Source: Deltaproteobacteria bacterium (GTDB lineage Bacteria > Myxococcota > Kuafuiibacteriia > Kuafuiibacteriales > Kuafuiibacteriaceae). From it: a stretch of 64,000 nucleotides of DNA. Both the position numbers and the translations under genes were made by a program. The stretch lies in contig JAVJQW010000070.1 in NCBI GenBank assembly GCA_040218735.1, positions 352,001 to 416,000 of the forward strand. Direction: 5' to 3'. Shown here one piece after another: positions 2,015 through 25,736 of the stretch; position 1 is the first letter of the stretch; the number at the start of each line of letters is the position of its first letter. The notes below the pieces were generated by a model that saw nothing but the letters and a program-made list of their open reading frames with translations, was not told the DNA's origin and did no database searches.

Positions 2015-2785
2015 ATGTTCGGTTTTCTCAACAGCGTGATCCGACTGTCGGTCGGGCTGGTGTTCACCGGAGTGGTGGTGCTCACGGGCGTCATCGCGCT
2101 GATCCCGATCATCCCGTGGCACGACAAGCGCATCCGTCTGTCGAACCACCTCGGCACCGTCCTCGGCAGCGGCATCATGTGGATCTCCGGCTGCAAGGTG
2201 ACGGTGCACGGGCAGGAGAACATCGTGCCCGGTCAGCCCGCGATCTTCGCCGGCAACCACACCTCGATCTTCGACGCCTTCACGTCGATCTGGCTGTCGC
2301 CGCAGGGCACGGTCGGCGTCGCGAAGAAGCAGATCATCTACTACCCATTCTACGGCGCGGCGTGGCTCCTCGCCGGTCACCTCACCGTCGACCGCAGCAA
2401 CACCGCCAACGCGAAGGCGTCCATGAAACGCATGGGTGAGTTCGTGCGCGCGAAAGGCCTGAGCCTCTTCATGTGGCCGGAGGGCACGCGCTCCCGCAAC
2501 GGACGCCTGCTCCCCTTCAAGAAGGGCGTCGTCCACCTCGCGCTGCAGACCGGCCTGCCGATCGTCCCGATGGTCACCGCCGGCGCGCACCGCGCGTGGA
2601 AGAAGGCGACGCTGTTCACGCTGCGGAGTGTCCCGATCGACATCACGTTCCTGCCCGCGATCGACACGTCGGGGTGGACCGAGGAGCGGATGGAGGAGCA
2701 CCTCGAAGAGCTGCGCGCGGTGATCGCCGCGGCGCTTCCGAGCGAGCAGCGCCCCGCGGACCCGGTCGAGCTCGCCGCGGCATAG
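2015..2785 (+). CDS. plsC: 1-acyl-sn-glycerol-3-phosphate acyltransferase (PlsC/LPLAT family)
   Basis: NHTSIFD (HxxxxD) and WPEGTRS motifs, N-terminal hydrophobic helix; ATG at 2015 chosen as start. Confidence 0.85.
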   Translation: MFGFLNSVIRLSVGLVFTGVVVLTGVIALIPIIPWHDKRIRLSNHLGTVLGSGIMWISGCKVTVHGQENIVPGQPAIFAGNHTSIFDAFTSIWLSPQGTVGVAKKQIIYYPFYGAAWLLAGHLTVDRSNTANAKASMKRMGEFVRAKGLSLFMWPEGTRSRNGRLLPFKKGVVHLALQTGLPIVPMVTAGAHRAWKKATLFTLRSVPIDITFLPAIDTSGWTEERMEEHLEELRAVIAAALPSEQRPADPVELAAA

Positions 2786-2792
2786 CTCTTCG

Positions 2793-3686
2793 TCAGGCCA
2801 CCGGCCACGCCACCTGCGTCTTCCAATCCTTCGGATCCGGCACCTCGCCGGGGTCCGTCAGGTAGACCTCGCGCGGCGGGCCGTTCGGCTCGAGGCCTTG
2901 CTCGTGGACGTACGTCTCGAGCGCGGCGTGGGCGTCGGCGAGGCCGTCGTAGGGGCCCGTGTGGATCGTCACCGCGAGCCGTCCGGCGGGGAGCACCTCG
3001 GCCTTGGTGTCACCGTCGCCCTTCGATCCGGGAGCGACCGCGAGCCCCCCGCGCATCGTGACGAGGCCGGGGCCCCAGTGGGTGTAGAGCGTCATCGGCG
3101 GCCCCATCATCGCGATGCCGTTCTGCGTGACGTACCCGAAGACGGCCGGGAGCAGCCGGCCGAGGGTCTCGGCGATCGCCGCGTGCGGGCACGACGCCTC
3201 CTGGTAGAGGACGGTCATCTCGGGCGCGTCCTGCAGCGTGATGTCGTAGTTCATGGTTCGTTCCTTTCGAGGTTCTAGGGGGGTGCGGAAGAGTCCGATG
3301 CACGGTCCGACGTGCAGGAGGAGCTCGGCGTGACGGACGGCGTCGGCGAGGCCGGACCGCACGGCGTCGCGGCGGAACGCGCTCGGTGACTTGTCGAAGT
3401 GCGCGGCGAAGGCGCGCGTGAATCCTTCGTGACTCTCGAACCCGGATTCGAGCGCGACGTCGAGCACCGAGTCCTCACGCGTCAGGAGCAGGACCGCAGC
3501 ACACTCGAGCTGAAGCCGGCGCGTGTACTGCTTCGGGCTCTCCTTCACGACGCGCGCGAACGCACGTTGTGTGTAAGAAGCCGAGCGCCCGACCTGGTCC
3601 GCGATCGACGCCAAAGAGCGCCGCTCGCCCCGCGCGTGACTCAGCTCGGCGAGCAGCGGCAGCCAGGTCTCGATCGTGTCCGCCAC
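2793..3686 (-). CDS. AraC family regulator with C-terminal GyrI-like effector-binding domain
   Basis: N-terminal AraC HTH (VLDVALESGFESHEGFTRAF); C-terminal HTGPYDGL...REVYLTDP GyrI-like signature. Confidence 0.88.
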   Translation of the reverse strand: MADTIETWLPLLAELSHARGERRSLASIADQVGRSASYTQRAFARVVKESPKQYTRRLQLECAAVLLLTREDSVLDVALESGFESHEGFTRAFAAHFDKSPSAFRRDAVRSGLADAVRHAELLLHVGPCIGLFRTPLEPRKERTMNYDITLQDAPEMTVLYQEASCPHAAIAETLGRLLPAVFGYVTQNGIAMMGPPMTLYTHWGPGLVTMRGGLAVAPGSKGDGDTKAEVLPAGRLAVTIHTGPYDGLADAHAALETYVHEQGLEPNGPPREVYLTDPGEVPDPKDWKTQVAWPVA

Positions 3687-5847: not shown

Positions 5848-6855
5848 TCAGAACTTCGGCTCGGGCAGCGTGAACGACTCGAAGCGCGCCTTGTTGCCGC
5901 GGACCTCGACCCACAGCGCCATGCCGTAGCCGGTCTTGCCGTTCAGCATCATCCACGGGTCCGGGTTCGCGGTGCCCGCGTTCACGAAGAGCTGCTTCGC
6001 CCACTTGCCCGGCTTCACGCGACGCTTGCCGTTCAGGTTCGAGCCGCGGCCGCCGGCCTCGAGGATGTGTCCGAAGATTCCGAACTGCACCTTCGTCGCC
6101 GTGAGGAGGTCCGTCATCTGCTGGTCGCCGACGTGGTCACCGTCCGTGACGATGTCGATGCCGTGTTTGCCTTTCATCTTCGGCGGGCCGTGCGAGATGA
6201 GGATCTTCGGGCCGGGGCCCGCCTTGATCATGTCCTTGAGGACTTGGAGGTCCTTCGGCTTGTACTTCTCCGCGCCGCCGGTGTGGGCGAACGCGCGATC
6301 GTAATAGCCGGGGAGCGTGTAGAGGACGCCGTCGTCCAGCTCGATCTGCCGCACCCAGTTCCCGTTCACGAAGTTCGGGTGCTTCTGGAAGACCGCCGTC
6401 GCCGCCTGGTTGAAGAGCCCGCACGACTCGGTGTTGCCGATGGTGACGATCGTCAGGACGCCGAGGCTCGCGAGCTTCGGGAACAGCGTCTCGTCCGGGT
6501 TGATCTCCTGCGACGCGAGGTCCCCGTTCACGACGAGGACGTCGACGCCCTTCTTCTTCACCTTCGCGAACAGGCGATCGATCGCGTCGAGCGTCTCCTT
6601 GCGATCGTCCTTCGTCGCCGAGAGCACCGCGATGCGCAGGTGATCGTCCTTGTCCTTGTCGACCTGCACCAGCCGGTGCCCCTCGAGCCGGTACTTGTGG
6701 CCGCCTGCGTCGATCGAGATCGGCATGTCGAGTCGACCGGGTTTGCCCTCGCACTCGCCGCGGCGCTTCTCCGCGAACTCTTCGTAGGTCCCCTCACCCG
6801 CCCAAGCGGTCGAGGTCAGGAGGAGGAGCGCGGTGCAGGCGCTGGCGATTTTCAT
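5848..6855 (-). CDS. Secreted calcineurin-like metallophosphoesterase family protein
   Basis: Signal peptide; VNGDL, IGNTE, SHGPP, FGHILE motifs. Confidence 0.75.
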   Translation of the reverse strand: MKIASACTALLLLTSTAWAGEGTYEEFAEKRRGECEGKPGRLDMPISIDAGGHKYRLEGHRLVQVDKDKDDHLRIAVLSATKDDRKETLDAIDRLFAKVKKKGVDVLVVNGDLASQEINPDETLFPKLASLGVLTIVTIGNTESCGLFNQAATAVFQKHPNFVNGNWVRQIELDDGVLYTLPGYYDRAFAHTGGAEKYKPKDLQVLKDMIKAGPGPKILISHGPPKMKGKHGIDIVTDGDHVGDQQMTDLLTATKVQFGIFGHILEAGGRGSNLNGKRRVKPGKWAKQLFVNAGTANPDPWMMLNGKTGYGMALWVEVRGNKARFESFTLPEPKF

Positions 6856-7006
6856 CGGTGGGGAGGCTATCACTTTTGAGTCCACGGCCCATCGGGCCCG
6901 CGACGCGCGAGGCGTCGTCGATGGAAACGGACGTCGGCGGCGGACCTTGAGCGACATTCGCTCCTCGGACGGTACACGCGGCCGGCGCATTCACGCGCGG
7001 TCTCCT

Positions 7007-8098
7007 TCACGCGCGGGTCCGAAGCAGCCGCAGCAACCCGCCGCCCAGGCCGGGCACCCCACCGACCGTCGCGACCAGCCTCGACGCCCAGCGCGGCGAC
7101 AGCAGCGCGGTCTGGAGCCGGCGCGCGAGCGCCATCCGTACGCCGAACCGACGGCGCCAACGCCGATCCCAGCTCCGACCGTCGCCGCCCTCCAACACCA
7201 GGTCCGCCAACAGCACCGCCGACTCGATCGCCATGGCCTGCCCGTCGCCCGCCAGCGGCGCGATCATCGCGGCGGCGTCCCCGACGAAGAGCACGCCGTC
7301 CTCGTGCCGTGTCTTGTCGACGAACGGGACCTGCGCCACCGCGAGCGGTTCCCCGGCCGGTTCCAGCGTGGCCAACCGCCGCGCCAGGGGTGCGCTCGCT
7401 TCGTTCAGGTGCGCCGCGACCCGGGACCACTCCGCCCCGCCGATCGAACGCACCACGCGCTCCTCCAGGAGCATGCACACGTTCACGATGCCCCCCTCGA
7501 CGTGGCTCATCCCGCAGTACCCCCCGTCGAACGTGTGAATCTCCACGCCGCCCGCGAGATCGTCCGCACCCCGGTGGTGGCGCTTGAGGCCGACGAACGG
7601 GTGACGCCGTTCGAGGAATGTTCGGTCGAGCTGTTTGTCGATCCGCGACCGCCGGCCCTGCGCCCCGATTACGAGGTCCGCCGCGTACGACGTGCCCCCG
7701 CCGTGCACGATCCACCCCGCCCCCGTCCGCTCGATGCGCTCCACCTCGCAGCCCTCGACGCCGGTCGCACCACTCGCGACGGCGTGAGCGAACAGCCGCT
7801 GGTCCAGGGTCCGCCGGCTCACGCCGATCGCGGGCGTCGGCAGATCGATGTGCGCCTCCGCGCCGTCCGCCGCGGTGAAACGTGCGCCAAAGATCCGCGG
7901 CGGCGACACCTCGTCGATCGCCGCCATCACCTCGAGCTCCGAGAGCCACGAGACGACGTCGCCGGAGAGGAACTCACCGCAGAGTTTGTCGCGCGGGAAC
8001 GTGTCGCGTTCGAGGATCGTGACGTCGCGTCCGGCGCGCGCGAGCCGCGCGGCGACCGTCGCGCCCGCGGGTCCGCCGCCGATCACCACGACGTTCAT
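7007..8098 (-). CDS. FAD-dependent oxidoreductase/monooxygenase (geranylgeranyl reductase-like) coupled to the type III PKS
   Basis: VIGGGPAG Rossmann motif, FPRDKLCGE, VGDAAAMIAPLAGDG; ATGA overlap with the PKS stop codon. Confidence 0.88.
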   Translation of the reverse strand: MNVVVIGGGPAGATVAARLARAGRDVTILERDTFPRDKLCGEFLSGDVVSWLSELEVMAAIDEVSPPRIFGARFTAADGAEAHIDLPTPAIGVSRRTLDQRLFAHAVASGATGVEGCEVERIERTGAGWIVHGGGTSYAADLVIGAQGRRSRIDKQLDRTFLERRHPFVGLKRHHRGADDLAGGVEIHTFDGGYCGMSHVEGGIVNVCMLLEERVVRSIGGAEWSRVAAHLNEASAPLARRLATLEPAGEPLAVAQVPFVDKTRHEDGVLFVGDAAAMIAPLAGDGQAMAIESAVLLADLVLEGGDGRSWDRRWRRRFGVRMALARRLQTALLSPRWASRLVATVGGVPGLGGGLLRLLRTRA

Positions 8099-13591: not shown

Positions 13592-13637
13592 CTCTTCCGA
13601 ACGTAACCACGGAGGGCCCGCGGTCCATCGCGGGGAG

Positions 13638-13711
13638 CACACCCAGAGGGACTCGAACCCCCAACCCCTGGATTCGAAGTCCAGTGCTCTATCCAATTGA
13701 GCTATGGGTGC
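13638..13711 (-). tRNA. tRNA-Arg, anticodon UCG; CCA not encoded
   Basis: GCACCCA-TAGCTCAATTGGATAGAGCA-CTGGA-CTTCGAA-TCCAG-GGGTT-GGGGG-TTCGAGT-CCCTC-TGGGTGT-G folds as a cloverleaf; followed by CTC. Confidence 0.95.
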
Positions 13712-13758: not shown

Positions 13759-15066
13759 TCAGCGCAGGGCGAGGCGGGTCTGGAAGCGGGCGAAGTCGGC
13801 GTCGAAGGCCTCGATGCCCGCGCGCATCAGGGCGCGCAGCTCGACGCGCTCGGCGTCGGAGAAGCGGAGGCGCTGGGCGAGCCGGAGCAGGAAGGTGACG
13901 AAGTCCTGCTGCTCGAGCTCGACGTCCGCGCCGAAGGCAATCGCGCCGTTCGGCTGCGTGGGGAACGCGCTCCACCAGCGGGCGCCGACGCCGTTGCTCT
14001 GCGTCAGCACGCGGAAGAAGTCGCCGACGAGCGTCTCGAGGTCGGAGGGGATCAGGACGTCGACGAGCGTCGCGTCCACCGCGACGCGCGGCATGCGCTT
14101 CAGCGTGGAGACCAGCCGCACCTCGTCGTCGGTGCGAACCACGTCGGTCGTCACCGAGAGGTCGGCGATGTGCATCGACACGCCGGGGGAGTCGGAGTCG
14201 AGCTCCCACGTGGTCTGGTAGCGGCTCTTCTGCAGGCGCGCGAGGTTCAGCGGGAACGTCGCCACCGACTCACGGCGCGCGCTGTCGACCTTGGCGATCA
14301 GCACGGTCTTTTTGTCCGCTCCTTGGATGCGGAACCGCGAGCTCGCGAGGCCCGCGCCGCGCTCGAGCGTCGCGGCGACACCTGGGTAGTCCTTCGCGAG
14401 CGCCTCCAGCTTCAGCCGCGTGGAGATCCGCGCACGCACCCCCCCGCCGTCCGCGGCGACGAGATCCCTGAACTCGATGTACTTCTCGACGAGCGACGTC
14501 GTCGCCGGGAACGCGGAGCGCAGCTCGGCGCGCAGCTTCTCGTCGCAGGCGTCGAGGCCCTTCTTCGCCGTGCACCCGCGCGTCACCGCGTTGACCCAAT
14601 CGATGAGCCCGGCGCCCACCGCGACCAGCTCGTCCGCGGTGAGGCCGACGTGCATGCGAGCGTCCGATTGGAGGCGATACGGTTTGCCGTCGGTCGGGGA
14701 CAGCTTCAGCGTCAGGCGCCCGTCACCGGCGCGCCCGTCGACGCGTGGCCTCGACGTCTCGACGTCGTAGCGCCCGACCGGGTGAAGGCTGCCGAACACC
14801 TCGAACGTCCGGACCTTCGACTCGGTGTCGGGCAGCTCGGCGTACAGGCCTTCGAGATCGAACGCCCCGAGGTGCGAGCGCACGCCGTCGAGGCGCTTGC
14901 GTGCGTCGGGCGTGACGGCGCGCTGCTGCGTGAACGCGTTCGTGAGGCGCACGAGATCCGCGACGCGCACCACGACTGCCTGGTCGTCACCGAGCGCCGA
15001 CGTGCAGGACCACGCACCGAGCTCGGGGGGCAGCGCGAGTGCAACGAACAGTGCCCACCACCCCAT
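13759..15066 (-). CDS. Hypothetical exported protein
   Basis: Long ORF with GC3 bias and N-terminal hydrophobic segment (MGWWALFVALAL). Confidence 0.7.
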   Translation of the reverse strand: MGWWALFVALALPPELGAWSCTSALGDDQAVVVRVADLVRLTNAFTQQRAVTPDARKRLDGVRSHLGAFDLEGLYAELPDTESKVRTFEVFGSLHPVGRYDVETSRPRVDGRAGDGRLTLKLSPTDGKPYRLQSDARMHVGLTADELVAVGAGLIDWVNAVTRGCTAKKGLDACDEKLRAELRSAFPATTSLVEKYIEFRDLVAADGGGVRARISTRLKLEALAKDYPGVAATLERGAGLASSRFRIQGADKKTVLIAKVDSARRESVATFPLNLARLQKSRYQTTWELDSDSPGVSMHIADLSVTTDVVRTDDEVRLVSTLKRMPRVAVDATLVDVLIPSDLETLVGDFFRVLTQSNGVGARWWSAFPTQPNGAIAFGADVELEQQDFVTFLLRLAQRLRFSDAERVELRALMRAGIEAFDADFARFQTRLALR

Positions 15067-15161
15067 GCGCCCTACTCTACCCGATTGTCGCGCAGCCGGG
15101 CGCGACCCGATGTCGCACGGTTGCCGAGCGCGACACGCTGCGTTCACAGTGCGCGGCGATC

Positions 15162-16181
15162 ATGCTCCTCGGTCTCACCCCCGACGCGCTCGCGGCGCGC
15201 CTCGAGTCCGCGACGCGGGCGCGGATGGTGACGCGCGTGCTCGCCGAGGGCCGCGACCCGTGGACGGCCGAGGACGTCCCGGAGGGGGTGCGCCGACGCC
15301 TCGCTGCCACCTGCGCGCGCACGCCGCACCGCATCACGAACCGCACCGAGGCCGACGACGGCACCGAAAAGCTCCTCGTCGACCTGTCGACCGACGCACC
15401 CGGGCGCGAGGTCGAGACCGTCCTCATCCCCACCGCGAGCCGCAACACGGTGTGTGTCTCCAGCCAGGTCGGCTGCAAGCGGCGTTGTCACTTCTGCCTC
15501 ACGGGTACGATGGGGCTCGTGCACGACCTGCGCGCGGACGAGATCGTTCTGCAGGTGTGGCTCGCGCTCCAGCGGCGGCCGGTGCGGAACGTCGTGTTCA
15601 TGGGGATGGGGGAGCCGCTCGACAACTTCGACGCGGTCGCGGACGCCGTCACCGTGCTCACCCACGACCGGGGCTTCGGTCTGGCGCCGCGGCACGTGAC
15701 GGTGTCGACGGTCGGCCCGTCGCCGGAGGCGGTGCGCCGGCTGCGCGACCTCGACACCCGGGTCGCGTGGTCGCTGCACGCCGCGGACGACGACGTCCGG
15801 GCGCGGATCATCGGCACGCACCGGCACCCGGTCGCGGCGCTGCGCGATGCGTTCTTCGAGGTGGTGGGGAAGCAGCCGCTGTTCGTCGAGGTCACGCTCA
15901 TCGCCGAACACAACGACCGTGACGAGGACGCCGACGCGCTCGTCCAGCTCTTCGCCGACGCGCCGACCGAAGTCCGACTCAACCTCCTCCCGATGAACCC
16001 GATCGGCAACGCGCTCCGCCCCAGCGTCCGGGTCGACGCCTTCGCCGCGCGTCTGAAGGCGGCCGGGTTCTTCACGTCGGTCCGCCGCGCGCGCGGCGAC
16101 GATCAGCGCTCGGCCTGCGGGCAGCTGTACGCGACACCCCGGCGACGCGGCGCCCTTCGTTCGGGCGAGCGGTCCGTGTAG
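15162..16181 (+). CDS. rlmN: RlmN/Cfr family radical SAM RNA methyltransferase
   Basis: CVSSQVGCKRRCHFC (CxxxCxxC), NVVFMGMGEP, SLHA, C-terminal SACGQL; may be a second paralog. Confidence 0.85.
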   Translation: MLLGLTPDALAARLESATRARMVTRVLAEGRDPWTAEDVPEGVRRRLAATCARTPHRITNRTEADDGTEKLLVDLSTDAPGREVETVLIPTASRNTVCVSSQVGCKRRCHFCLTGTMGLVHDLRADEIVLQVWLALQRRPVRNVVFMGMGEPLDNFDAVADAVTVLTHDRGFGLAPRHVTVSTVGPSPEAVRRLRDLDTRVAWSLHAADDDVRARIIGTHRHPVAALRDAFFEVVGKQPLFVEVTLIAEHNDRDEDADALVQLFADAPTEVRLNLLPMNPIGNALRPSVRVDAFAARLKAAGFFTSVRRARGDDQRSACGQLYATPRRRGALRSGERSV

Positions 16182-16191
16182 GCTCCGCGGC

Positions 16192-17280
16192 GTGCGGGTC
16201 GAGCGCGTCGAGTCGATCGTCGAGTTCGAAGCGCTCGCCGAAGCGTGGTCCGACCTCGCCGACCGATCCGACACCGCGCACCTGTTCAACACCCACGCCT
16301 GGCTGAGCGCATGGTGGGAGGCGTTCGGGCGCGGCACCCCGCGGGTGTACGCGGTGTACGACGACCGGCTCGTCGCCGCGCTCCCGCTGCGCCTGGACGA
16401 CCGCGGGCTCACGGCGTGGTTCAACCACTACCTCGGGCGCAGTGACGTCCTCGTGGATCGCGACCGGCCCGACGCCTACCCAGCGCTCTTCGCTGCGCTG
16501 GGCGACGACCGCGCCGACTGGGACCACGTCGAGCTGACGCAGGTTCCGGAGGACTCCCCGACGATCGCCGCCCTCGCCCGCGGCGACGCGGATCCGTTGC
16601 GCATCCACGCGGTGCGCAACATCTGCTCGCCCTACCTGCTCTGCCGGGGCACTTACGACGCCTGGTACAAGTCCCGCTTCTCCGGTCGGAAGCGTCAGCA
16701 GGACCGCCGCAAGCTCCGGCAGGCGGAGAAACGCGGCGCGACGGAGCTCGTCTGGCACACCGACGTCGAGGCCGTGCAGGCCGCCTTCGAGCGCGGCGCG
16801 ATCGCGGAGGACAAGAGTTGGAAGGGCGAGGAGGCGAGCGCGATGCTGAAGAGCCCCGACGCCCTCGCCTTCATGCGCGACGTCATCGTTCGGTTCGCCA
16901 AGCTCGGTGCGGTGCGGCTGGTCGAGCAGACCGTCGGCGGCGAGACGGCGGCGTTCCTGCTCGGCTTCGTGCACGGCGACACCTTCTACTTCCACAAGAC
17001 CGGCTACGACCCCGAGTTCGCCGACGTGAGCCCCGGCCGCACCGTGCTGCTCGCGGCGATCGAGCGGTGCTTCGAGGAGGGGCTCGCGCGCTTCGACTTC
17101 CTCGGCGCGGACGACCCCTACAAGCTCGAGTGCTCCCCCCTCGTTCGCCCGCACGTCATCGCGTTTGTGTACCACCGCGGTCTGCGCTCGCGGATGCTGC
17201 GCGAGCAGAAGCGCCTCGTCCCGAAGGTCCGCGCCCTGCGCGGCGAGCCGATCGCGTTCCCCGTGCGACTGGACAGATGA
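16192..17280 (+). CDS. GNAT family acetyltransferase (CelD/BcsL-like)
   Basis: FNTHAWLSAWW, SWKG, GYDPEFADVSPG, FDFLGADDPYK. Confidence 0.82.
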   Translation: MRVERVESIVEFEALAEAWSDLADRSDTAHLFNTHAWLSAWWEAFGRGTPRVYAVYDDRLVAALPLRLDDRGLTAWFNHYLGRSDVLVDRDRPDAYPALFAALGDDRADWDHVELTQVPEDSPTIAALARGDADPLRIHAVRNICSPYLLCRGTYDAWYKSRFSGRKRQQDRRKLRQAEKRGATELVWHTDVEAVQAAFERGAIAEDKSWKGEEASAMLKSPDALAFMRDVIVRFAKLGAVRLVEQTVGGETAAFLLGFVHGDTFYFHKTGYDPEFADVSPGRTVLLAAIERCFEEGLARFDFLGADDPYKLECSPLVRPHVIAFVYHRGLRSRMLREQKRLVPKVRALRGEPIAFPVRLDR

Positions 17281-17306
17281 CTCGGGCGGGGCGATCGTAG
17301 GGGCGG

Positions 17307-18353
17307 ATGCCGCGCGGGCTCGAAGTCCACCCGATCGCCGACGAAGCCGATCCGCCTTGGCGCGCCCTCCTCGATCGTCACGTGATGGCGCGTTCGATCG
17401 TGCCGGCGTGGGAGGTTCTGGCGGGCTGGGAGAACGCGCCGTACGGCCTCTACGATCACGGTGAGCTCGTCGGCGGCTTCCTGCTCTCCACGCAGCGCAT
17501 CCCGTTCACGCCGCTGAAGTTCTCACGCATCAACTGCTTGATGGTCGGACCCCAGCGTCCGGTCGAAGGCTTGGACGCGTTGCTCGCGGCGTTGGATCGC
17601 ATCGCGATCAAGCGAGGCCTGATCGAGACGGAGCTGCGGCTTCGCATCCCGACCGTCGACGACATCCCCGGCTTCGAAGCCCACGCCCCGCTCCGCGCGA
17701 CGTTCGAGCGGCACGGCTACAACCCGCTCGGTAAGGTCGACACGACCTACTTCGTCCGCGTCGACCGCGACGACGACACGATGCTCGCGTCCTTCGACCG
17801 CAGCGCGCGAAACAAGATCCGCAAAGCGCAGCGCAGCGAGGTCCAGGTCGAAGTCTCGAGCGACTTCACGCTGCTCGACGACTTCTACGACGCGTACATC
17901 GACATGTGCCACCGCAAGAGCGCGCCGGTGCAGCCCGAGGCGCTCGTCGGTTACGGGCTCAAGCCGCTGATCGAGCGCGGCCACGCGCTGTTCGTCACGG
18001 AACGTTACGGCGAGCACGTCTCGAACATGGTCATCGTCGATACACTCGGCGTGCCCTGCTACGTGCTCGGCGCACGCGCCCCCGCGAACGTTCGCGGCAT
18101 CGTCCCCGGCGCGGCGCAGGTCGTTCAGTTCGAGATCATGCGCACCATGCGCGAGCGCGGCCACGTCTGGTACGACCTCGGCGGCTGTGAAGGCCCCGTG
18201 CCGATCGACCGCCACGAAAACTTCGGCGTGTGGCGCTTCAAGTACGGCTTCGGCGGGCGCTTCATCCGCTTCCTCCCCTACTTCCGCAAGATCCGCGGCC
18301 CGCTCCCGCGCGTCGTGCAGCTCACCCACGAGCTCCGCGGCGACTTCGTCTAG
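17307..18353 (+). CDS. FemAB/FemX-like double-GNAT (aminoacyl transferase-like) protein
   Basis: RNKIRKAQR, WYDLGG, GVWRFKYGFGG motifs typical of the FemAB superfamily. Confidence 0.75.
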   Translation: MPRGLEVHPIADEADPPWRALLDRHVMARSIVPAWEVLAGWENAPYGLYDHGELVGGFLLSTQRIPFTPLKFSRINCLMVGPQRPVEGLDALLAALDRIAIKRGLIETELRLRIPTVDDIPGFEAHAPLRATFERHGYNPLGKVDTTYFVRVDRDDDTMLASFDRSARNKIRKAQRSEVQVEVSSDFTLLDDFYDAYIDMCHRKSAPVQPEALVGYGLKPLIERGHALFVTERYGEHVSNMVIVDTLGVPCYVLGARAPANVRGIVPGAAQVVQFEIMRTMRERGHVWYDLGGCEGPVPIDRHENFGVWRFKYGFGGRFIRFLPYFRKIRGPLPRVVQLTHELRGDFV

Positions 18354-18359
18354 GTGCGC

Positions 18360-20294
18360 TCACGCGGCCTCGACCACTCGCGTCACCAGGTTCGCCTCGC
18401 CACCCGCCGGTTCGACCTCGAACTCCAGACGCCCCTCGTACGCGAAGCTCTTGGAGAGCTCACGCGCATAAGGCACACCCGAGCGCGCCAATCGCTCGAT
18501 GATCAGGTCCTGCGATGGACTCGACCTCGACCGGTGCAGCATCCCAAGGAGCGCGCGCGCCGCATGGAAGTCCTCCGCTCTCGGCGCCGCACCACGCGCC
18601 ACCGTCGACCAGACACTGCGCCGACGCGAGGAGGCGCGCCCATCGACGATGCGCCACTCGCTGGTGAGCCGTTCGAGTGCTCCCACCGCAGCGTCGCACG
18701 CGCCTATAACGCTCTCTGCGCTCGCCACGAGAGACTGCTCGAGCCCTCGCACCAGGAGCACAGCACGTTCGAGCTCCGAGAGCTTCGCATTCATCGCGAC
18801 GTCCAACAGCTCCGTTGCATCGTTGGTCAAACCACACGAATGAACGAAGACGTCACGAAGCCTGGCCTCATGAAGTCGCCCCGCAAACATCGACGACGCA
18901 CTTCGCGTGCTCTCGACGAACCCGTGCGCGGCCCAAAACGTAAGCCAGGTGGGATCGCAAGGGTGCCACCGCCGCGAGCTCTCCTGCACCACGAGGCCCG
19001 TTAGCTCGGCCACGTACGACAAGACCTCCCTCGCGATGGGGGGCGTAGGCCGAACCGAAGCCTCGTCGAGCCACGCCTCCTCCAGCGCGTCGCAACCCGT
19101 GTCGACGGCACGCAGCGCCATCCAGTGAAGCCAGTAGCGCACACGTGATGCCTTCGCCCAGGGCGCCGCGCGCCGGACATGACGACGTCGCGAATCACGC
19201 TCCGCGAACTCGGCGAGGCACGCATCTAGGACTTCGGTCTGTCGAAACCACGTCGAAGCACCGTCCGATCGCCCAGCCTTCAACGCGCCCTCGATGAGGA
19301 GTGGACGATTGAGGACGTCCGCGAGCTCGTCACGCTCCCAGAGTCGCCCGATGAACTCCGTTCGGACATCATCGGCGCGTCGACACAGAAGCCGCCAAGA
19401 CTCGCTCCGCGTGAGCGACTTCGCCTCGACTCGAACGAAGTCCTCGAGCCGGTCCAGCTCCGCTACCGGCCGCGACGTCACGATGGTCGGCCGACCGACA
19501 CTCCATCGCGAGATCGCCTCCGCCGCCAAGCTACGCTCATCGACCGCGATCTGATCGAACCCATCCGCAAACATCGGAACGGGGTCCTCGGACTCGGACC
19601 AGCTCGTCGACTCACACCACGCCCCCTCCGGCACTTGGCCAAGGTCGACGCGCCGCACCGTCCGACCGAAGTACTCCGCGAGCACGTTCGCGACGCTGCT
19701 CGACTTCCCCGTGCCGGCCTCTCCGAACACGATGACCCGTGGCGAGGAGCTAAGAGCCTCGACGAGATCGTCGCGGAGCGTTCCCACACAGGACGCATCG
19801 AGCCTCGTCTTCCGAGGCACCGGCTCCCGCCAATACGCGCCTGGCTTCGCGTCTTGGGCGATGGACGCCGACGCATCACCGCTCGAGATCTCCGCCGGCA
19901 TCGGCCGGGTCCCGCTGCGAAGCGCTTCCACCTGCTCCGAAATGGGTCGACCGCGTAGCTCTAGCATCGCGGCCTCGTAGGTCGTCTCCTCGAGGTACCG
20001 CGCCACGGAAGGGGCCATCCGTTCGCCGTGCGGCGACACCTGAGACGCTGGCCGCTCCGCCATCGCCCGGAAGGACTCCAAGGGCGCGCTCGGCGCCGAT
20101 GCGCTTCGCTCGACGACGTCGACGATGCGCCGAAGAACATCCGCTCTCGGGATCGTCCGATCGTTCACCCACTGCGAGATCGCCGAGGCGCTCACGCCCA
20201 GGTAGGTTGCCCACTCCGAGCGCTTGAACACGCCCGCTTCATCCAAGAGCCCGACGAGCGCTCGGGCGAACTTGCTCTGCCTTCGCTCGCTCAT
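18360..20294 (-). CDS. XRE-type HTH fused to a NACHT-like (STAND) NTPase
   Basis: N-terminal WATYLGVSASAISQWVNDRTIP (Cro/XRE HTH); Walker A GEAGTGKS; Walker B FADGFDQ; IVTSRP; NRPLLI; winged-helix-like PTWLTFWAA. Confidence 0.75.
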   Translation of the reverse strand: MSERRQSKFARALVGLLDEAGVFKRSEWATYLGVSASAISQWVNDRTIPRADVLRRIVDVVERSASAPSAPLESFRAMAERPASQVSPHGERMAPSVARYLEETTYEAAMLELRGRPISEQVEALRSGTRPMPAEISSGDASASIAQDAKPGAYWREPVPRKTRLDASCVGTLRDDLVEALSSSPRVIVFGEAGTGKSSSVANVLAEYFGRTVRRVDLGQVPEGAWCESTSWSESEDPVPMFADGFDQIAVDERSLAAEAISRWSVGRPTIVTSRPVAELDRLEDFVRVEAKSLTRSESWRLLCRRADDVRTEFIGRLWERDELADVLNRPLLIEGALKAGRSDGASTWFRQTEVLDACLAEFAERDSRRRHVRRAAPWAKASRVRYWLHWMALRAVDTGCDALEEAWLDEASVRPTPPIAREVLSYVAELTGLVVQESSRRWHPCDPTWLTFWAAHGFVESTRSASSMFAGRLHEARLRDVFVHSCGLTNDATELLDVAMNAKLSELERAVLLVRGLEQSLVASAESVIGACDAAVGALERLTSEWRIVDGRASSRRRSVWSTVARGAAPRAEDFHAARALLGMLHRSRSSPSQDLIIERLARSGVPYARELSKSFAYEGRLEFEVEPAGGEANLVTRVVEAA

Positions 20295-21009
20295 GATTCA
20301 CCTCTCTGCGCCCGATCGTCGAACGCGTACGCATCGTCGAAGTGCATGTGAATGCCTTCGTCCCAGTCCATATCCGGCGCACAGACGCCGGTGCTCCGCA
20401 GCCCCTTCGCGCGCGCCTCGCCGAGTTGCTGGAGCGCCTGGAGAGTGACTTCGCGCGCCGCCTCGAGCGTCATCGTCGCCCGCCCTGGCGACGCAAATAC
20501 GATCCCGTCACGGACCTCGATCCAAGGCTCCACAGCCTCGAGTCCCGTCGAGTCCCCCGGAATCACTTCGCGCCCCGCCGTGAACACTCCACCCCCGGCG
20601 CCTTGGCGCATTTCAGGCGGCAATGCCGCGAAGAACTCCGCTTCGTCCGCTGGCGTCACGATGCGGTCGTCGGGAGGCACGTAGTCGACGTACTTCGTCT
20701 TCACGCGTGTCCCCAGGACGGAGCGGCGGTGAGCGCGCCCTCGTATCGGCGCGTGTGAGGTCACGCTCCACCCCTTGACGAGGTCCACGTAGACCTCGAC
20801 GTCGAGTCCGTCGGGCGTGTCGATCACCCACAGCGGTGTCTGCTGCAACCACCCGTCCAGCGTGATGCCGATGGTCTTCGCCAACCACATCGTCGCCGCC
20901 CCGGCCGCGACGACAAGGACCGCCGGCTTCAGCTCGACGCCGCCGCGGTCCCCAGCAGCCCTCCGCCGAGGATGACCACGTCGCACGCGAACGCCTCCGT
21001 CCCGCTCAC
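20291..21009 (-). pseudogene. FAD-dependent oxidoreductase (DAO/glycine oxidase-like), internally deleted and frameshifted
   Basis: GTG 21009 gives MSGTEAFACDVVILGGGLLGTAAASS* (Rossmann motif, stop at 20931-20929); another frame continues VELKPAVLVVAAGA...FASPGRATM to 20291; the middle of a DAO-family protein is missing. Confidence 0.7.
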
Positions 21010-21015
21010 CGAAAC

Positions 21016-21044
21016 AAGATAGGGGAGCGAAGGCACGTCGTCAA
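21016..21044 (-). promoter_or_regulatory. sigma70-type promoter TTGACG-N17-TATCTT
   Basis: -35 at 21044-21039, -10 at 21021-21016, only 6 nt from GTG 21009. Confidence 0.7.
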
Positions 21045-21064
21045 GTCACTTCATGAAGTGACTT
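21043..21064. promoter_or_regulatory. Perfect 22-bp palindrome, candidate operator
   Basis: AAGTCACTTCATGAAGTGACTT is its own reverse complement; AT-rich; overlaps the -35 box. Confidence 0.7.
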
Positions 21065-21080
21065 CATTAGAATCGAAGGC

Positions 21081-21833
21081 CTATTGGGCAGCGCCTACGC
21101 CCTCGTCCTTCAGGTCGTCGAGCGGCAGCCCCTTCGCCGTGGCGAGGAGGTCCTTCATCGGCACCTTCCGGCCCTGGACCTCGACCATGAAGCGGTCGGC
21201 GAGGATCAGCTTCACCTCGCCGCGCATCGTCTTCGAGTTCCACTTCTCGTAGGACTTGTGGCCGTCGATCTTCGACGTGCGCTCGTAGCCGTCGTCCGAC
21301 TCGCGATCGATCTCCGCCATCGCCCAGCCCGCCGCCGCCATCGCCGCGAAGCCCTTCATCGAGCCCATGTCGATGATCTTCACGGTGAGCCGCTTGCCGT
21401 CCGCCTCGTACTTGCCCTCTGCGTTGGAGATCTTCATCCCCATCGCGCCCGCCTTCTCGCCCTTCGCGTTCGTACGCTTCAGGCCGGCCGCCTCGTCCGG
21501 GAGCATCTTCTTCAGCTCGCGGAAGTTCACCGGCTCCACGTTCGACGTGTTCTTCGCGATGGCCTTCTGCATCTCGGCCATCGCCTCCTGGAGGTTCTTC
21601 GGATCCGCGGCGTCGGTCGCGTCGTCCGCGGCCCCCTCGCCGTCGTCCGCCGCCTCCTTCGCGACCTTCGCCGCCTCCTTGGCGGCCTGCTCGGCGACCT
21701 TCGCCGCCTCCAGCGCCTGTTTCTTCGCGGCCTCGGCGTTCGCCATGGCCTCCTTCACCTTCGCCTGCTCGTCCTTGCAGCCGACGGCCACGATGAAGGA
21801 GACGAACAACCCGACAATCCAGACCTTCTTCAT
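21081..21833 (-). CDS. Hypothetical lipoprotein with Ala/Lys/Glu-rich coiled coil
   Basis: MKKVWIVGLFVSFIVAVGC lipobox; strong codon bias. Confidence 0.8.
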   Translation of the reverse strand: MKKVWIVGLFVSFIVAVGCKDEQAKVKEAMANAEAAKKQALEAAKVAEQAAKEAAKVAKEAADDGEGAADDATDAADPKNLQEAMAEMQKAIAKNTSNVEPVNFRELKKMLPDEAAGLKRTNAKGEKAGAMGMKISNAEGKYEADGKRLTVKIIDMGSMKGFAAMAAAGWAMAEIDRESDDGYERTSKIDGHKSYEKWNSKTMRGEVKLILADRFMVEVQGRKVPMKDLLATAKGLPLDDLKDEGVGAAQ

Positions 21834-21934
21834 GGGCTGGGACCGTAACCGGATCCCCGGGGTGGGATCCACGCGTGGCACGACCGCGCCAGAAAAACCG
21901 ACGAATCGACGAAGCACCGTGCACTGCCCAGATC

Positions 21935-23206
21935 ATGCGTACAATCTCGGTGCTCCTCGTCTCGTCGCTGTTCGCGTGCGGCACGGAGCGGATGGCGTCG
22001 ACGCCCGGCGACCGCGACGTCGGCGCCTCGGCCCCGGACGCCGGCTCAGGACGGACCGATGCAGGCCCCCGGGACGGAGGAGAGGTGACCGACGGGGGCG
22101 ACCCACACCGCGACGGGGGCGACGTCCCGCGCGACGGAGGCGATCCAGGCGGCTGTGTCCCGCTCCCCGCGACCCCGATTACGGAGGTCGCGGACGCCGC
22201 GTTCGGCATCCGTGGGCTCGTCGAGGTCGACGGGGGCTTCCTCGTCGCTTGGATCCGCAACCGGTCGATGGAGCCCTTCAACGCGATCGTGACCCACGTC
22301 GACGCGCAGCTGAACCGGGTCTCCTACGGCGAGGACCTGGGCCCCCTCCCCGACCGCGACGGACAACTCCTCCCCGCCGAGGACGGTGCCTGGTTCCAGG
22401 GCGTGCGCCCCTCGCTCGGCATGCAGAGGATCGAGCTCACCAAGCTCGGGCCGTCGGGCTCCATCGAGGGGCGGCACACGATCACCTCCACCACGATCGT
22501 GGGCTCCGACTTCGTCCGCACCGACGATGGGTACGCGGTCTCCTACAACGTCGGTCGGCGCGGGCACCCCTACGACCGCGCCGTGCTCCAGCGCCTCGAC
22601 ACCGACGGACGCCCGGTCGGCGACCCCGTCACCCTCATCGAAGGCCGGGGGGTCGATCAGCTCGTGTGGACGGGGTCCCAGCTCGGTGCGGTGGTGTTGT
22701 CCGGGGGGACGGAGTTCGGGCTCGTTCGGCTCGACGCGAACGGCACCACGCCCGAACCCGTGATGCCCCTCGTCTTCGACGAAGCGGTGGCAGGCCCGTT
22801 CTCCCTCGCCGCACACCCCGACGGCTTCCTGTTCGGCACGCGGCTGCAGGGCGACGAACGAAGCCTCTTTCGCTTCTTCGACGCCGCCGGGGCCCCGGTG
22901 GGGCGCGCTCAGCTGTTCGGGCTCTGGCCGGTCGAGGCGGTATACGACGGCGAGGTCTTCGGCCTGGCCGCCGAGGACTTCTTTTCTCGAGGGACGGCGA
23001 TGCAGTTCGCCGTCGCCGCGCCCGGACAGATCCGCGACGTTCGCGAGAGCGCGCTCTCCATCAACCCGACCAACCCGGCCGCGGCCAACGCACAGATCGT
23101 CGCCGTGGACGGCGGCTTCGTCCTGGCGTGGCTCGAGTGGACGTTCAACGTGAACCCGCTCACCGAGCCGGACTACCGCGTGGTCATGGCACGCGTGTGC
23201 CTCTGA
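21935..23206 (+). CDS. Hypothetical lipoprotein, probable beta-propeller
   Basis: LFAC lipobox, DGG-repeat linker, repeated 'GFLVAW/GYAVSY/GFVLAW' blade-like segments. Confidence 0.72.
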   Translation: MRTISVLLVSSLFACGTERMASTPGDRDVGASAPDAGSGRTDAGPRDGGEVTDGGDPHRDGGDVPRDGGDPGGCVPLPATPITEVADAAFGIRGLVEVDGGFLVAWIRNRSMEPFNAIVTHVDAQLNRVSYGEDLGPLPDRDGQLLPAEDGAWFQGVRPSLGMQRIELTKLGPSGSIEGRHTITSTTIVGSDFVRTDDGYAVSYNVGRRGHPYDRAVLQRLDTDGRPVGDPVTLIEGRGVDQLVWTGSQLGAVVLSGGTEFGLVRLDANGTTPEPVMPLVFDEAVAGPFSLAAHPDGFLFGTRLQGDERSLFRFFDAAGAPVGRAQLFGLWPVEAVYDGEVFGLAAEDFFSRGTAMQFAVAAPGQIRDVRESALSINPTNPAAANAQIVAVDGGFVLAWLEWTFNVNPLTEPDYRVVMARVCL

Positions 23207-23213
23207 CGCCCGT

Positions 23214-25736
23214 CTACTTGGCGATGAGGTTCAGGATCTTGCCGGGTTTGTAGATCACGCGGACGAGGTTCTTGCCCTCCAGCTGCCGCGCCACCGACTC
23301 GTTCGCCTTTGCGGCGGCTACGGCCGTCGCCTCGTCGGCGTCGACCGGGATCTCGATCTCCCCGCGCGTCTTCCCCATCACCTGGACGCCCATCTTCATG
23401 GTGTCCTCGACGAGGTACTTTTCGTCCGCCTCGGGCCACGCGGCGTAGCTGATCCCGCCCTCGTGACCGAGCCCCTTCGCCCACAGCTCCTCCGCGATGT
23501 GCGGCGCGAGCGGCTGGATGAGCTGCGCGAGCGGGCCGAGGATCGCCTTCGACGTCGTCTTCAGCTGGGTGAGATCGCGCGTCGCGATGTGCAGCGCGGA
23601 GACCGCCGTGTTGAGCGCGAGCTTTTCGTAGTCTTCGCTCACCTTCGCGATCGCCTTGTGGAGGATCTTCAGCTCCTCCGCCGTCGGCTCCGCGTCCGTC
23701 GCGCGCGGCGTGTCGTCGTCGCCCTCGAAGTACAGACGCCACACCCGCTCCAGCCACTTGAACTGCGCCTGGATGCCGCCCGGCGCCCACGGCTTGTCCT
23801 GGTCGAGCGGCCCGAGGAACGCGATGTAGACGCGCATCGCGTCGGCGCCATAGTCGCGGATGACGTCGTCCGGGTTCACGACGTTCCCCTTCCGCTTCGA
23901 CATCTTCTCGATGCGCTGCGTGAGCACCTCACCGGTGCCCTTCTCGACGTACGTGCCGTCCTTCTCCTCGACGTCGTTCCACGCGACGATCCGCTTGTCG
24001 TCGCGGTAGTACGTGAACGCCTGCACCATCCCCTGGTGGAACAGCTTCGTCGCGAACTCCGCGTCGCGCACGAGCCCCTCGTCGTGCAGGAACCGCTGCC
24101 ACATCCGCGAGTACATCAGGTGCCCCACGGCATGCTCCGGGCCGCCGACGTACAGGTCGACGGGCATCCAGTAGTCCGACTTCTCCCGCGCGCAGAACGC
24201 CTCGTCGTTGTGCGGGTCGCAGTAGCGCAGGAAGTACCAGCTCGACCCCGCCGAGCCCGGCATCGTCTGCGTCTCGCGCAGGAGCTTCTCGCCGGTCTTC
24301 GGATCGTCGACCTCCACCCACGCGCGCGCGAGCGACAGCGGCGACTCACCGGTGCCCGTCGGCGCGTACTGCTCGACCGCCGGGAGCTCGAGCGGAAGCT
24401 CGTCCACGTCCAACGCGCGCACCACCTCGCCCGCCGCGTTCTTCAGCACCGGGATCGGCTCGCCCCAGTAGCGCTGCCGCGCGAACGTCCAGTCGCGGAG
24501 CTTGTAGTTGATCGTGCCCTCGCCGAAGCCCTGCTCCGCGAGCCACGCCGTGACCTTCTTCTTCGCCTCGCCGTCCGCGGTCGGCGTGCCGTCGAAGTCG
24601 CCGCTGTTGATCATCTCGCCTTCGCCGACGTGCGCGCCTTCGGACACGTCGCCGCCCGAGATCACCGGCACGATCGACAGCTCCATCGCCTTCGCAAACG
24701 CCCAGTCGCGCTCGTCGTGTCCGGGCACGGCCATAATCGCGCCGGTGCCGTAGCCGTAGATCACGTAGTCGGAGATCCAGATCGGGATCTGCGCCCCCGT
24801 CGCCGGGTTCGTCGCACGCGCACCGGTGTCCGCGCCGGTCTTCTCCTTCGTGGTCTGCCGGTCGATCTCACTCATCGCCGCCGTGCGCGCCTGGTACGCC
24901 TCGACGGCCTCCCGCTGCGCGTCCGTGGTGATCTCGGCGACGATCGGGTGCTCGGGCGCCACGACCATGTACGTCGCGCCGAACACGGTGTCGGGGCGCG
25001 TCGTGAACACGCGGAGCTTCTCGTCGGAGCCTTCGATCAAGAAGTCGATGTGCGCGCCCTCCGAGCGCCCGATGCGCTCACGCTGCGCAAGTTTGGTTGC
25101 GTCGGCCCAGTCGATCGTCTCGAGCCCCTCGAGCAGCTTCTCGGCGTAGTCGGTGATGCGAATCATCCACTGCCGCATCCGCTTGCGCTCGACCGGGTGG
25201 CCGCCGCGCTCCGACTTGCCGTCGATGACCTCGTCGTTCGCGAGCACCGTCCCGAGCGCCGGGCACCAGTTCACGAAGGTGTCGGCCTCGTACGCCAGCC
25301 CCTTCTCGAGCAGCTTCGTGAAGATCCACTGCGTCCACTTGTAGAAGTCCGGCGACGCCGTCGAGACCTCGCGCGTCCAGTCGTACGAGAAGCCGCACAT
25401 CTTGAGCTGGCGGCGGAACGTCTCGATCGACTCCGCCGTCGACTGCTGCGGGGGGACGCCCTCGTCGATCGCCTTCTGTTCGGCGGGGAGCCCGAAGGCG
25501 TCGTAGCCCATCGGGTGGAGGACGTTGAAGCCCTGCGCGCGGCGCTTGCGGGAGACGACGTCCGCGCCGATGTAACTCGCCGGGTGGCCGACGTGCAGCC
25601 CCTTGCCCGACGGGTACGGGAACATGTCGAGCGCATAGAACTTGGGGAGGGAGAAGTCGTCCTTGGCGACGAAGGTCCCTTCGTCATCCCAGAACTTCTG
25701 CCAACGGGGCTCGATCTCGGTCGGGCGGTACGGCAT
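23214..25736 (-). CDS. leuS: Leucine--tRNA ligase
   Basis: MFPYPSGKGLHVGH (HIGH), KMSKR (KMSKS), FTTRPDT editing domain, RQRYWGEPIP. Confidence 0.97.
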   Translation of the reverse strand: MPYRPTEIEPRWQKFWDDEGTFVAKDDFSLPKFYALDMFPYPSGKGLHVGHPASYIGADVVSRKRRAQGFNVLHPMGYDAFGLPAEQKAIDEGVPPQQSTAESIETFRRQLKMCGFSYDWTREVSTASPDFYKWTQWIFTKLLEKGLAYEADTFVNWCPALGTVLANDEVIDGKSERGGHPVERKRMRQWMIRITDYAEKLLEGLETIDWADATKLAQRERIGRSEGAHIDFLIEGSDEKLRVFTTRPDTVFGATYMVVAPEHPIVAEITTDAQREAVEAYQARTAAMSEIDRQTTKEKTGADTGARATNPATGAQIPIWISDYVIYGYGTGAIMAVPGHDERDWAFAKAMELSIVPVISGGDVSEGAHVGEGEMINSGDFDGTPTADGEAKKKVTAWLAEQGFGEGTINYKLRDWTFARQRYWGEPIPVLKNAAGEVVRALDVDELPLELPAVEQYAPTGTGESPLSLARAWVEVDDPKTGEKLLRETQTMPGSAGSSWYFLRYCDPHNDEAFCAREKSDYWMPVDLYVGGPEHAVGHLMYSRMWQRFLHDEGLVRDAEFATKLFHQGMVQAFTYYRDDKRIVAWNDVEEKDGTYVEKGTGEVLTQRIEKMSKRKGNVVNPDDVIRDYGADAMRVYIAFLGPLDQDKPWAPGGIQAQFKWLERVWRLYFEGDDDTPRATDAEPTAEELKILHKAIAKVSEDYEKLALNTAVSALHIATRDLTQLKTTSKAILGPLAQLIQPLAPHIAEELWAKGLGHEGGISYAAWPEADEKYLVEDTMKMGVQVMGKTRGEIEIPVDADEATAVAAAKANESVARQLEGKNLVRVIYKPGKILNLIAK

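Follow-up and report, generated by a model that had tools for sequence, protein, structure and literature searches.

An apparently decayed oxidase and HTH-NACHT gene pair in a Deltaproteobacteria genome and its intact relatives in other bacteria

Transcription regulators of the MalT/AfsR type join a DNA-binding domain to a STAND NTPase and a sensor region, and in MalT the helix-turn-helix (HTH) domain is C-terminal and of the LuxR type. HigBA and MqsRA are type II toxin-antitoxin pairs in which the toxin gene comes first and the antitoxin carries an XRE-type HTH domain. In PutA, an enzymatic function and a DNA-binding function of the ribbon-helix-helix fold reside in one polypeptide. For bacterial NACHT proteins, the main text of a recent survey lists N-terminal 'adaptor' modules that include HTH, 'transcription regulatory/DNA-binding domains', and defines the Walker B signature as D[GAS]hDE (Kibby et al., bioRxiv 10.1101/2022.07.19.500537). 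Here, we analyzed a two-gene locus on the minus strand of a 64,000-nucleotide (nt) stretch of contig JAVJQW010000070.1 from a Deltaproteobacteria bacterium, termed the window (G+C content 70%; assembly size 11.6 Mb). Its first gene, P0002, is annotated as encoding a hypothetical protein, and its second gene, P0001, encodes a protein with an XRE-type HTH domain and a NACHT-type NTPase. The reading that we favour, with a probability of about one half, is that the locus derives by decay from a conserved operon of two genes, the intact form of which would be an autoregulated, sensor-coupled flavoenzyme module of the conflict kind.

The module is similar to MalT/AfsR-type regulators in that a DNA-binding domain, a STAND NTPase and a sensor are combined, such that ligand- and nucleotide-driven oligomerisation could control operator binding, and the MalT structure 8bob was among the fold matches of P0001. 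However, the module has an N-terminal XRE-type HTH domain and a NACHT-type NTPase, and the regulator is coupled downstream of its sole would-be target, the product of which it is predicted to bind. With HigBA and MqsRA the module shares a first gene coupled to an XRE-HTH gene, a predicted binding of the first gene product, and a palindrome at the promoter, whereas its first gene encodes a flavoenzyme of 400 amino acids (aa), its second protein is large and carries sensor or NTPase modules, and the predicted interface lies off the active site. The predicted enzyme has the two-domain D-amino-acid oxidase (DAO) fold and the N-terminal GxGxxG motif of monomeric sarcosine oxidase, ThiO, iminodiacetate oxidase and NikD (PDB 6pxs, 9u3e, 4ysh and 2q6u), but it is only 14-20% identical to them and has its own C-terminal tail and a predicted HTH-docking surface. 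As in PutA and trigger enzymes, a flavoenzyme is physically associated with DNA binding at its own promoter; here this association is a prediction, and, unlike PutA, the module consists of two proteins. As far as bacterial NACHT and NLR-related proteins are described in the main text of Kibby et al., the P0001 family is like them in its tripartite layout, its D[GAS]hDE Walker B motif (DGFDQ in P0001 itself) and its predicted animal-NLR fold, but its N-terminal domain accompanies a flavoenzyme encoded by a gene of its own and is also present in proteins that lack NACHT.

Taken alone, the architecture of P0001 is not new, because HTH 'adaptors' on NACHT proteins have been catalogued, as stated in the main text of Kibby et al., and atlas clusters with an XRE-HTH domain and a STAND NTPase exist. 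The word 'oxidoreductase' has 0 occurrences in that main text. We found no description in the literature of the pairing with a DAO flavoprotein, the shared operator, the docking or the exchangeable C-terminal module, although supplementary tables might list the clade, and no model in PADLOC or NCBIfam names the oxidase-HTH pair. The module is thus apparently not yet described, in line with the first-pass annotation of this DNA, which had not recognised the pairing as a named system.

The broken oxidase gene and its HTH-NACHT partner

The first-pass annotation had proposed a unit of palindrome, sigma-70 promoter, flavin adenine dinucleotide (FAD) oxidoreductase gene and a coupled gene for a 644-aa XRE-HTH and NACHT-like protein. 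The palindrome, the promoter-like site, the HTH-NACHT protein and the overlap of the P0002 stop codon with the P0001 start codon (ATGA, 20291-20294) were all recovered, but the oxidoreductase gene proved to be broken. The Rossmann motif CDVVILGGGLLGTAAA lies outside the P0002 frame. Its own frame (20929-21045) closes with TGA, and the 26 codons that start with the GTG at 21009 are 54% identical to the N-terminus of the intact oxidase of Steroidobacter gossypii (locus L006). P0002 aligns, from about residue 14 on, to the C-terminal ~215 residues of intact relatives. Accordingly, a profile built from 57 oxidase relatives matched the window only at profile positions 199-409 of 410 (20309-20944, E = 1.7e-55), and positions ~30-198 are absent. 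About 170 codons are missing, the frame is shifted, and the deletion junction lies at about 20935-20950. Of 42 conserved oxidase columns, 26 fall in the missing part; P0002 retains 11 of the 14 C-terminal ones, R315 being among those lost, and it had no DAO match in Pfam.

The same break is present in an independent metagenome contig of 29,452 nt from another study, which covers 19800-21600 and differs from the window by 14 substitutions and one 9-nt insertion at 21111, none of them at the junction. A contig of a second sequencing run also spans the junction. Because the structure recurs in the independent contig, the break is not an assembly artefact. Neither a second oxidase of this subfamily nor a second HTH domain was found in the genome, which is 96.5% complete. 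Judged by its sequence, the locus is a relic, i.e. a decayed copy with a broken oxidase gene rather than a working pair, and the 231-aa 'hypothetical protein' is the tail of that gene.

Comparison of the window with the sister strain revealed that five of the six substitutions in the oxidase remnants (20291-21009) are synonymous in the ancestral frames. Such a bias is odd for a dead gene, and the count is too small to interpret. The 9-nt insertion of the sister strain is in-frame and lies near the 3'-end of a lipoprotein-like gene (21081-21917).

In this genome, the HTH-NACHT gene alone remains whole, with a glutamine in place of the Walker B glutamate. The open reading frame (ORF) of P0001 is intact, 5 of its 644 residues differ from the sister strain, and it is preceded by a Shine-Dalgarno-like GAGG. 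Its N-terminal region matched Pfam HTH_3 (PF01381) at residues 29-60 with 24.0 bits (cut-off 23), a model also matched by 11 of 33 full-length family members and 24 of 117 relatives of the N-terminal domain. The matches of P0001 to nSTAND1 (20.7 bits, cut-off 27.1) and AAA_16 were both below threshold, and Pfam NACHT was matched by 22 of the 33 family members (E ≤ 1e-3, best 3.5e-12). A phmmer search with P0001 yielded 419 matches, 34 of which, at 1e-30 or better, were proteins of 650-740 aa that align end-to-end with 29-35% identity. In an alignment of 33 members, the Walker A motif, the DG[LF]DE Walker B motif and the SRP motif are conserved, and G194, G196 and K197 are invariant in 33/33. 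The Walker A sequence of P0001, GEAGTGKS, fits the P-loop pattern GxxGxGK[ST]. In the Walker B motif, P0001 has kept D244, G245 and D247, and its last position is Q, compared with E in 31 of the 32 other members. Of 72 conserved columns, 9 deviate from the family consensus in P0001 and 1-11 in other members.

The AlphaFold model of P0001 (predicted local distance difference test (pLDDT) 84.6) comprises a helical N-terminal domain (1-127), a disordered linker (129-169), the NTPase core, a helical/winged-helix part and a C-terminal part (446-644), and thereby has the predicted nucleotide-binding, helical and winged-helix domains of NACHT NTPases. The best Foldseek matches were NLRC4, NAIP, NLRP14, NLRP3 and NOD2 (E 6e-8 to 6e-7), with MalT and Avs4 lower among the matches. 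These models and the Pfam results agree with the proposed NACHT/STAND nature of the central region. The C-terminal part resembles the C-terminal helical domains of NACHT proteins, which we regard as a lead only. Searches of PADLOC with P0001, P0007 and P0009 gave no significant match (best E 2.6e-4, to a short P-loop stretch), the NCBIfam model EruA scored 21 bits against a cut-off of 1000, and a PDB sequence search returned only generic P-loop and Rossmann matches.

The oxidase-HTH pair in other bacteria

Pattern scans of genome and metagenome collections yielded 14 loci with the HTH domain (L006-L019). Eleven of them have a DAO-family ORF immediately 5' of the HTH-domain gene and on the same strand. 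As the match is at a contig edge in L013 and L016 and the domain match is weak in L019, these three are uninformative, and linkage was found in 11/11 informative loci. Two pairs of loci are near-duplicates (L009/L017 and L011/L012), such that the number of independent lineages is nearer eight. The distance between the two genes ranges from an overlap to 43 nt in nine loci, and the two loci with an unusually long gap of 232-437 nt are L011 and L012. In contrast, an oxidase gene was found in 0 of 12 control loci with other NACHT genes that lack this HTH domain.

What is conserved alongside the flavoenzyme is the HTH domain of ~130 aa, NACHT being only one of several C-terminal modules. Residues 1-130 alone are 40-57% identical across proteins of other lengths and architectures. 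Among 117 proteins with this N-terminal domain (P0036-P0152), Pfam detected NACHT in seven, GAF_2 in three, TIR_2 in one (E = 3.9e-9) and adh_short in one; in most of them it found only the HTH domain. The downstream protein is of the NACHT type in L006 and in L007, an alphaproteobacterial metagenome-assembled genome, of the GAF type in L009 and L017, and has an unrecognised C-terminal part in the remaining loci. The intact module consists of two genes and ~3.3 kb, is present intact in a cultured soil bacterium, and has no transporter or other pathway gene conserved next to it. The proposed gene pairing is borne out in other bacteria, but in the window the copy is broken, and the conserved partner is the HTH domain rather than NACHT. 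When 401 genomes of one class were sampled, matches were obtained in eight, seven of which were other NACHT proteins without the HTH domain; a full-length HTH-NACHT member was present in 1/401.

The intact oxidases matched Pfam DAO (PF01266) with E-values of 4.7e-15 to 1.2e-18 (6.2e-5 for L009). The subfamily comprises 69 clusters at 1e-10 or better, which have only generic names in public sources, and no NCBIfam equivalog was reached (best 25 bits, cut-offs at least 250). The model of the oxidase (pLDDT 95.3) matched iminodiacetate, sarcosine and glycine oxidases, NikD and L-amino-acid deaminase with template modelling scores of 0.6-0.72 and the low identities given above. By this model, the protein is an amine or amino-acid oxidase-like flavoprotein of ~400 aa, and its conserved residues point to a working enzyme.

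Individual loci have neighbours of their own. In L007, the module lies between a 724-aa adenosine-deaminase-like gene (92-2263; PADLOC RdrB, E = 9.5e-22) and a downstream P4-type integrase gene (6410-7612; Phage_int_M, Phage_integrase and Arm-DNA-bind_3), which suggests a mobile island with a RADAR-like component. In L018, a gene with a RelA/SpoT domain (2-1147; Pfam E = 5.4e-10; PADLOC candidate PDC-S33, E = 8.8e-6) is located divergently upstream of the module. In L013, a radical SAM gene (2120-3562) directly follows the gene for a 640-aa protein with the N-terminal domain; the upstream side of this locus is cut by the contig end.

Candidate operator and predicted docking

A 71-nt intergenic stretch, which on the minus strand follows the stop codon of the lipoprotein-like gene (TAG, 21081-21083), holds both the palindrome and the promoter-like site. 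The perfect palindrome, AAGTCACTTCATGAAGTGACTT, has the length of 22 bp that the first-pass annotation had given and is the longest in the window; its length alone is not rare, with arms of at least 11 in 26 of 200 first-order Markov simulations. The promoter-like site matches the sigma-70 consensus at 9 of 12 positions, a consensus match only, and one such site was found versus 0.2 expected from shuffled sequences. The -35 hexamer of this site and the right arm of the palindrome overlap. We considered and rejected termination of the lipoprotein gene upstream as an explanation of the palindrome, as the terminator scan had no site there and its single match was at 18853-18873.

At nine of the 11 linked loci, the oxidase gene is preceded by an inverted repeat, TTAAG-N14-CTTAA. 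With TTAAG-N12..16-CTTAA and up to one mismatch, 12 matches were obtained over the 14 related loci (77.5 kb), 11 of them within ~130 nt upstream of an oxidase start. In L011 (1373-1452) and L012 (1554-1633), two repeat copies that lie 56 nt apart precede the oxidase gene. On visual inspection, -10-like or -35-like hexamers overlap the AT-rich spacer or an arm of the repeat. The sequences therefore offer a conserved candidate operator at the promoter of a predicted autoregulated HTH operon. The window palindrome can be read as TCAAG-N16-CTTCA (21041-21066), i.e. with two symmetric mismatches to TTAAG-N14-CTTAA, and the longer spacer is also found in the repeat of L006. It is plausible that the palindrome belongs to this operator family and has diverged. 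A further copy of the palindrome or a consensus-type repeat was not found in the window at up to one mismatch.

For the cognate pair of L007, the complex of the oxidase and residues 1-135 of its partner was predicted with an own alignment for each chain. All three runs gave a complex score of 0.94, compared with 0.00 for the best of three controls. In the calibration of the method, 58 of 80 solved complexes and only 2 of 110 mismatched pairs attain the score mark, figures that apply only roughly here because own alignments were used. At least 96% of the contacts were shared between the runs, and the pLDDT of the partner was at least 91. On the oxidase side, the predicted interface comprises residues 23-29, 70-90, 119-125, 168-172 and 353-369, all of the FAD-binding domain, and on the side of the HTH protein residues 25-36, 55-69 and 109-132, with the recognition helix (about 40-46) outside. 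The prediction supports binding of the HTH domain to the FAD-binding domain of the oxidase via the helices flanking the recognition helix and the C-terminal extension. Most of the oxidase residues at this interface belong to the part that is deleted in the window. To our knowledge, no complex of this oxidase-HTH kind has been solved.

Surroundings of the locus and possible functions of the module

The features of the locus are compiled in Table 1.

Table 1. Features of the gene pair and its upstream region (window positions)
Feature	Position	Strand	Description
P0001 ORF	18360-20294	-	644 aa
Putative sensor region and stop	18360..19259	-	predicted helical/winged-helix aa 346-445; predicted C-terminal helical/alpha-beta aa 446-644
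NACHT-type P-loop NTPase core, aa 170-345	19260..19787	-	Walker A GEAGTGKS 191-198, Walker B DGFDQ 244-248, SRP 274-276
N-terminal domain, aa 1-127	19914..20294	-	XRE-type HTH and conserved helical extension; travels with oxidase gene
P0002 ORF	20291-20986	-	231 aa, annotated 'hypothetical protein'
C-terminal remnant of DAO-family gene	from ~20947 downward within P0002 (20291..20986)	-	C-terminal ~215 aa, other frame
N-terminal remnant of DAO-family gene	20929..21009	-	GTG start, 26 codons with GxGxxG FAD-binding motif, TGA
Promoter-like site	21016..21044	-	TTGACG-17-TATCTT, sigma-70 consensus match only
Candidate operator	21043..21064	.	perfect 22-bp palindrome AAGTCACTTCATGAAGTGACTT

The flanking genes are ordinary and encode a leucyl-tRNA synthetase, a lipoprotein, FemAB/GNAT proteins and a radical SAM protein. 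The G+C content at third codon positions (GC3), judged by eye in the first-pass annotation to be lower than in the flanks, was calculated to be 0.80 for P0002 and 0.78 for P0001, compared with 0.89-0.96 in the six flanking genes measured. No relative of P0001 was found in 60 related genomes; three weak matches of P0002 in these genomes (E 6e-4 to 7e-3) were judged to be due to chance, and word-index homologue searches with P0001 and P0002 returned only self-matches. Because of the lower GC3, the lack of relatives in the 60 genomes and the patchy distribution, the suggested horizontal acquisition of the module is plausible, but direct or inverted repeats flanking the module and insertion boundaries were not found. 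The sole tRNA in the window is 4.6 kb from the module; this tRNA-Arg(TCG) (13637-13711) lies beyond a group (15039-18353) of a radical SAM gene and two tandem FemAB/Acetyltransf_6 genes (16192-17280 and 17307-18353), which has the appearance of a cluster for peptide or cell-wall modification with no relation to the module. A plus-strand ORF of 628 aa (21367-23253) was rejected as a gene and regarded as an antisense shadow, its GC3 being 0.64.

For the intact module, we propose the following mechanism. The first gene would encode a flavoprotein of ~400 aa with the fold of D-amino-acid, sarcosine and glycine oxidases, and the second, translationally coupled gene a protein with an N-terminal XRE-type HTH domain of ~130 aa and a variable C-terminal module (NACHT, GAF or unrecognised). 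The HTH domain would repress the operon at the inverted repeat and would simultaneously dock the oxidase to the sensor module. A signal at the C-terminal module, which in the case of NACHT would act via nucleotide-dependent oligomerisation, would alter DNA binding as well as the state of the docked oxidase. As its output, the module would oxidise an amine- or amino-acid-like metabolite, yielding an imine and reduced flavin or H2O2. We prefer a conflict-type function, whether defence-like or toxin-antitoxin-like, over housekeeping catabolism because the sensors seem to be exchangeable (NACHT and, in one case, TIR), the pair is rare and patchy, its GC3 is lowered, it has decayed in this genome, and an RdrB-like gene and an integrase gene are its neighbours in L007. 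The module might represent a previously unrecognised class of conflict systems, in which a dedicated XRE-type HTH 'docking' domain would connect interchangeable sensors (NACHT, GAF, TIR-containing and others) with a DAO-fold oxidase and would also autoregulate the operon, and the oxidase, once activated, would be the effector that depletes an amine or amino-acid metabolite or makes peroxide. This wider proposal is tentative and may well prove wrong.

Several observations weigh against the favoured reading. A recognised defence gene is present beside only one of about six loci with readable flanks, PADLOC models were matched by only 3 of the 117 proteins with the N-terminal domain at 1e-5, and the neighbourhood in the window is not a defence island. 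Linkage of the oxidase to a NACHT-type protein was observed at only two outside loci and in the window. The palindrome of the window and the repeat elsewhere appear to share a resemblance only (spacer of 16 and two mismatches). The predicted interface lies off the active site, unlike a plug that neutralises a toxin. Lastly, GAF fusions and an operator that overlaps the promoter would fit an ordinary ligand-controlled regulator equally well.

This last point leads to the explanation that the pair is an ordinary catabolic unit. The oxidase would degrade an amine or amino-acid derivative, the HTH protein would be its dedicated autoregulated repressor or activator, substrate feedback would operate by contact as in trigger enzymes, and the C-terminal modules would add inputs. 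The fold of an amine or amino-acid oxidase, the conserved residues that suggest a working enzyme, the overlap of operator and promoter, GAF domains as classic small-molecule sensors, the housekeeping neighbours in the window and the scarcity of PADLOC matches are all in accord with such a unit. However, a single enzyme family would then be joined to C-terminal modules as dissimilar as NACHT and, in one case, TIR, the pair was found in none of 60 relatives and in 1 of 401 genomes of the sampled class, a conserved transporter or pathway gene is missing beside it, and it was lost in this genome without replacement. We regard a catabolic unit as rather unlikely.

Two further explanations concern the window itself. 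P0001 might now be a lone MalT-like STAND transcription factor for itself or other genes, with the oxidase remnant as debris. The exchange of E for Q in its Walker B motif may cripple nucleotide hydrolysis, and no other palindrome or consensus-type repeat is present in the window at up to one mismatch, which makes this role improbable despite an intact ORF nearly identical to that of the sister strain, its own Shine-Dalgarno-like GAGG, consensus departures within the range of the family, and MalT among the fold matches. The idea of a functional sensor module made up, in this genome, of an intact oxidoreductase and the HTH-NACHT protein is hardly tenable: a stop codon follows the FAD-binding motif, which lies in another frame, more than half of the conserved oxidase columns are missing, P0002 has no Pfam DAO match, and the break is real and recurs in an independent assembly. 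In its favour are the presence of the promoter, the palindrome, the ORFs and the stop/start overlap, and the few inter-strain substitutions in the remnant frames, which are mostly synonymous.

If the intact module is a sensor-gated flavoenzyme, a redox enzyme would join the effectors of NLR-like and toxin-antitoxin-like systems, and one HTH domain would be an operator binder and an enzyme adaptor at once.

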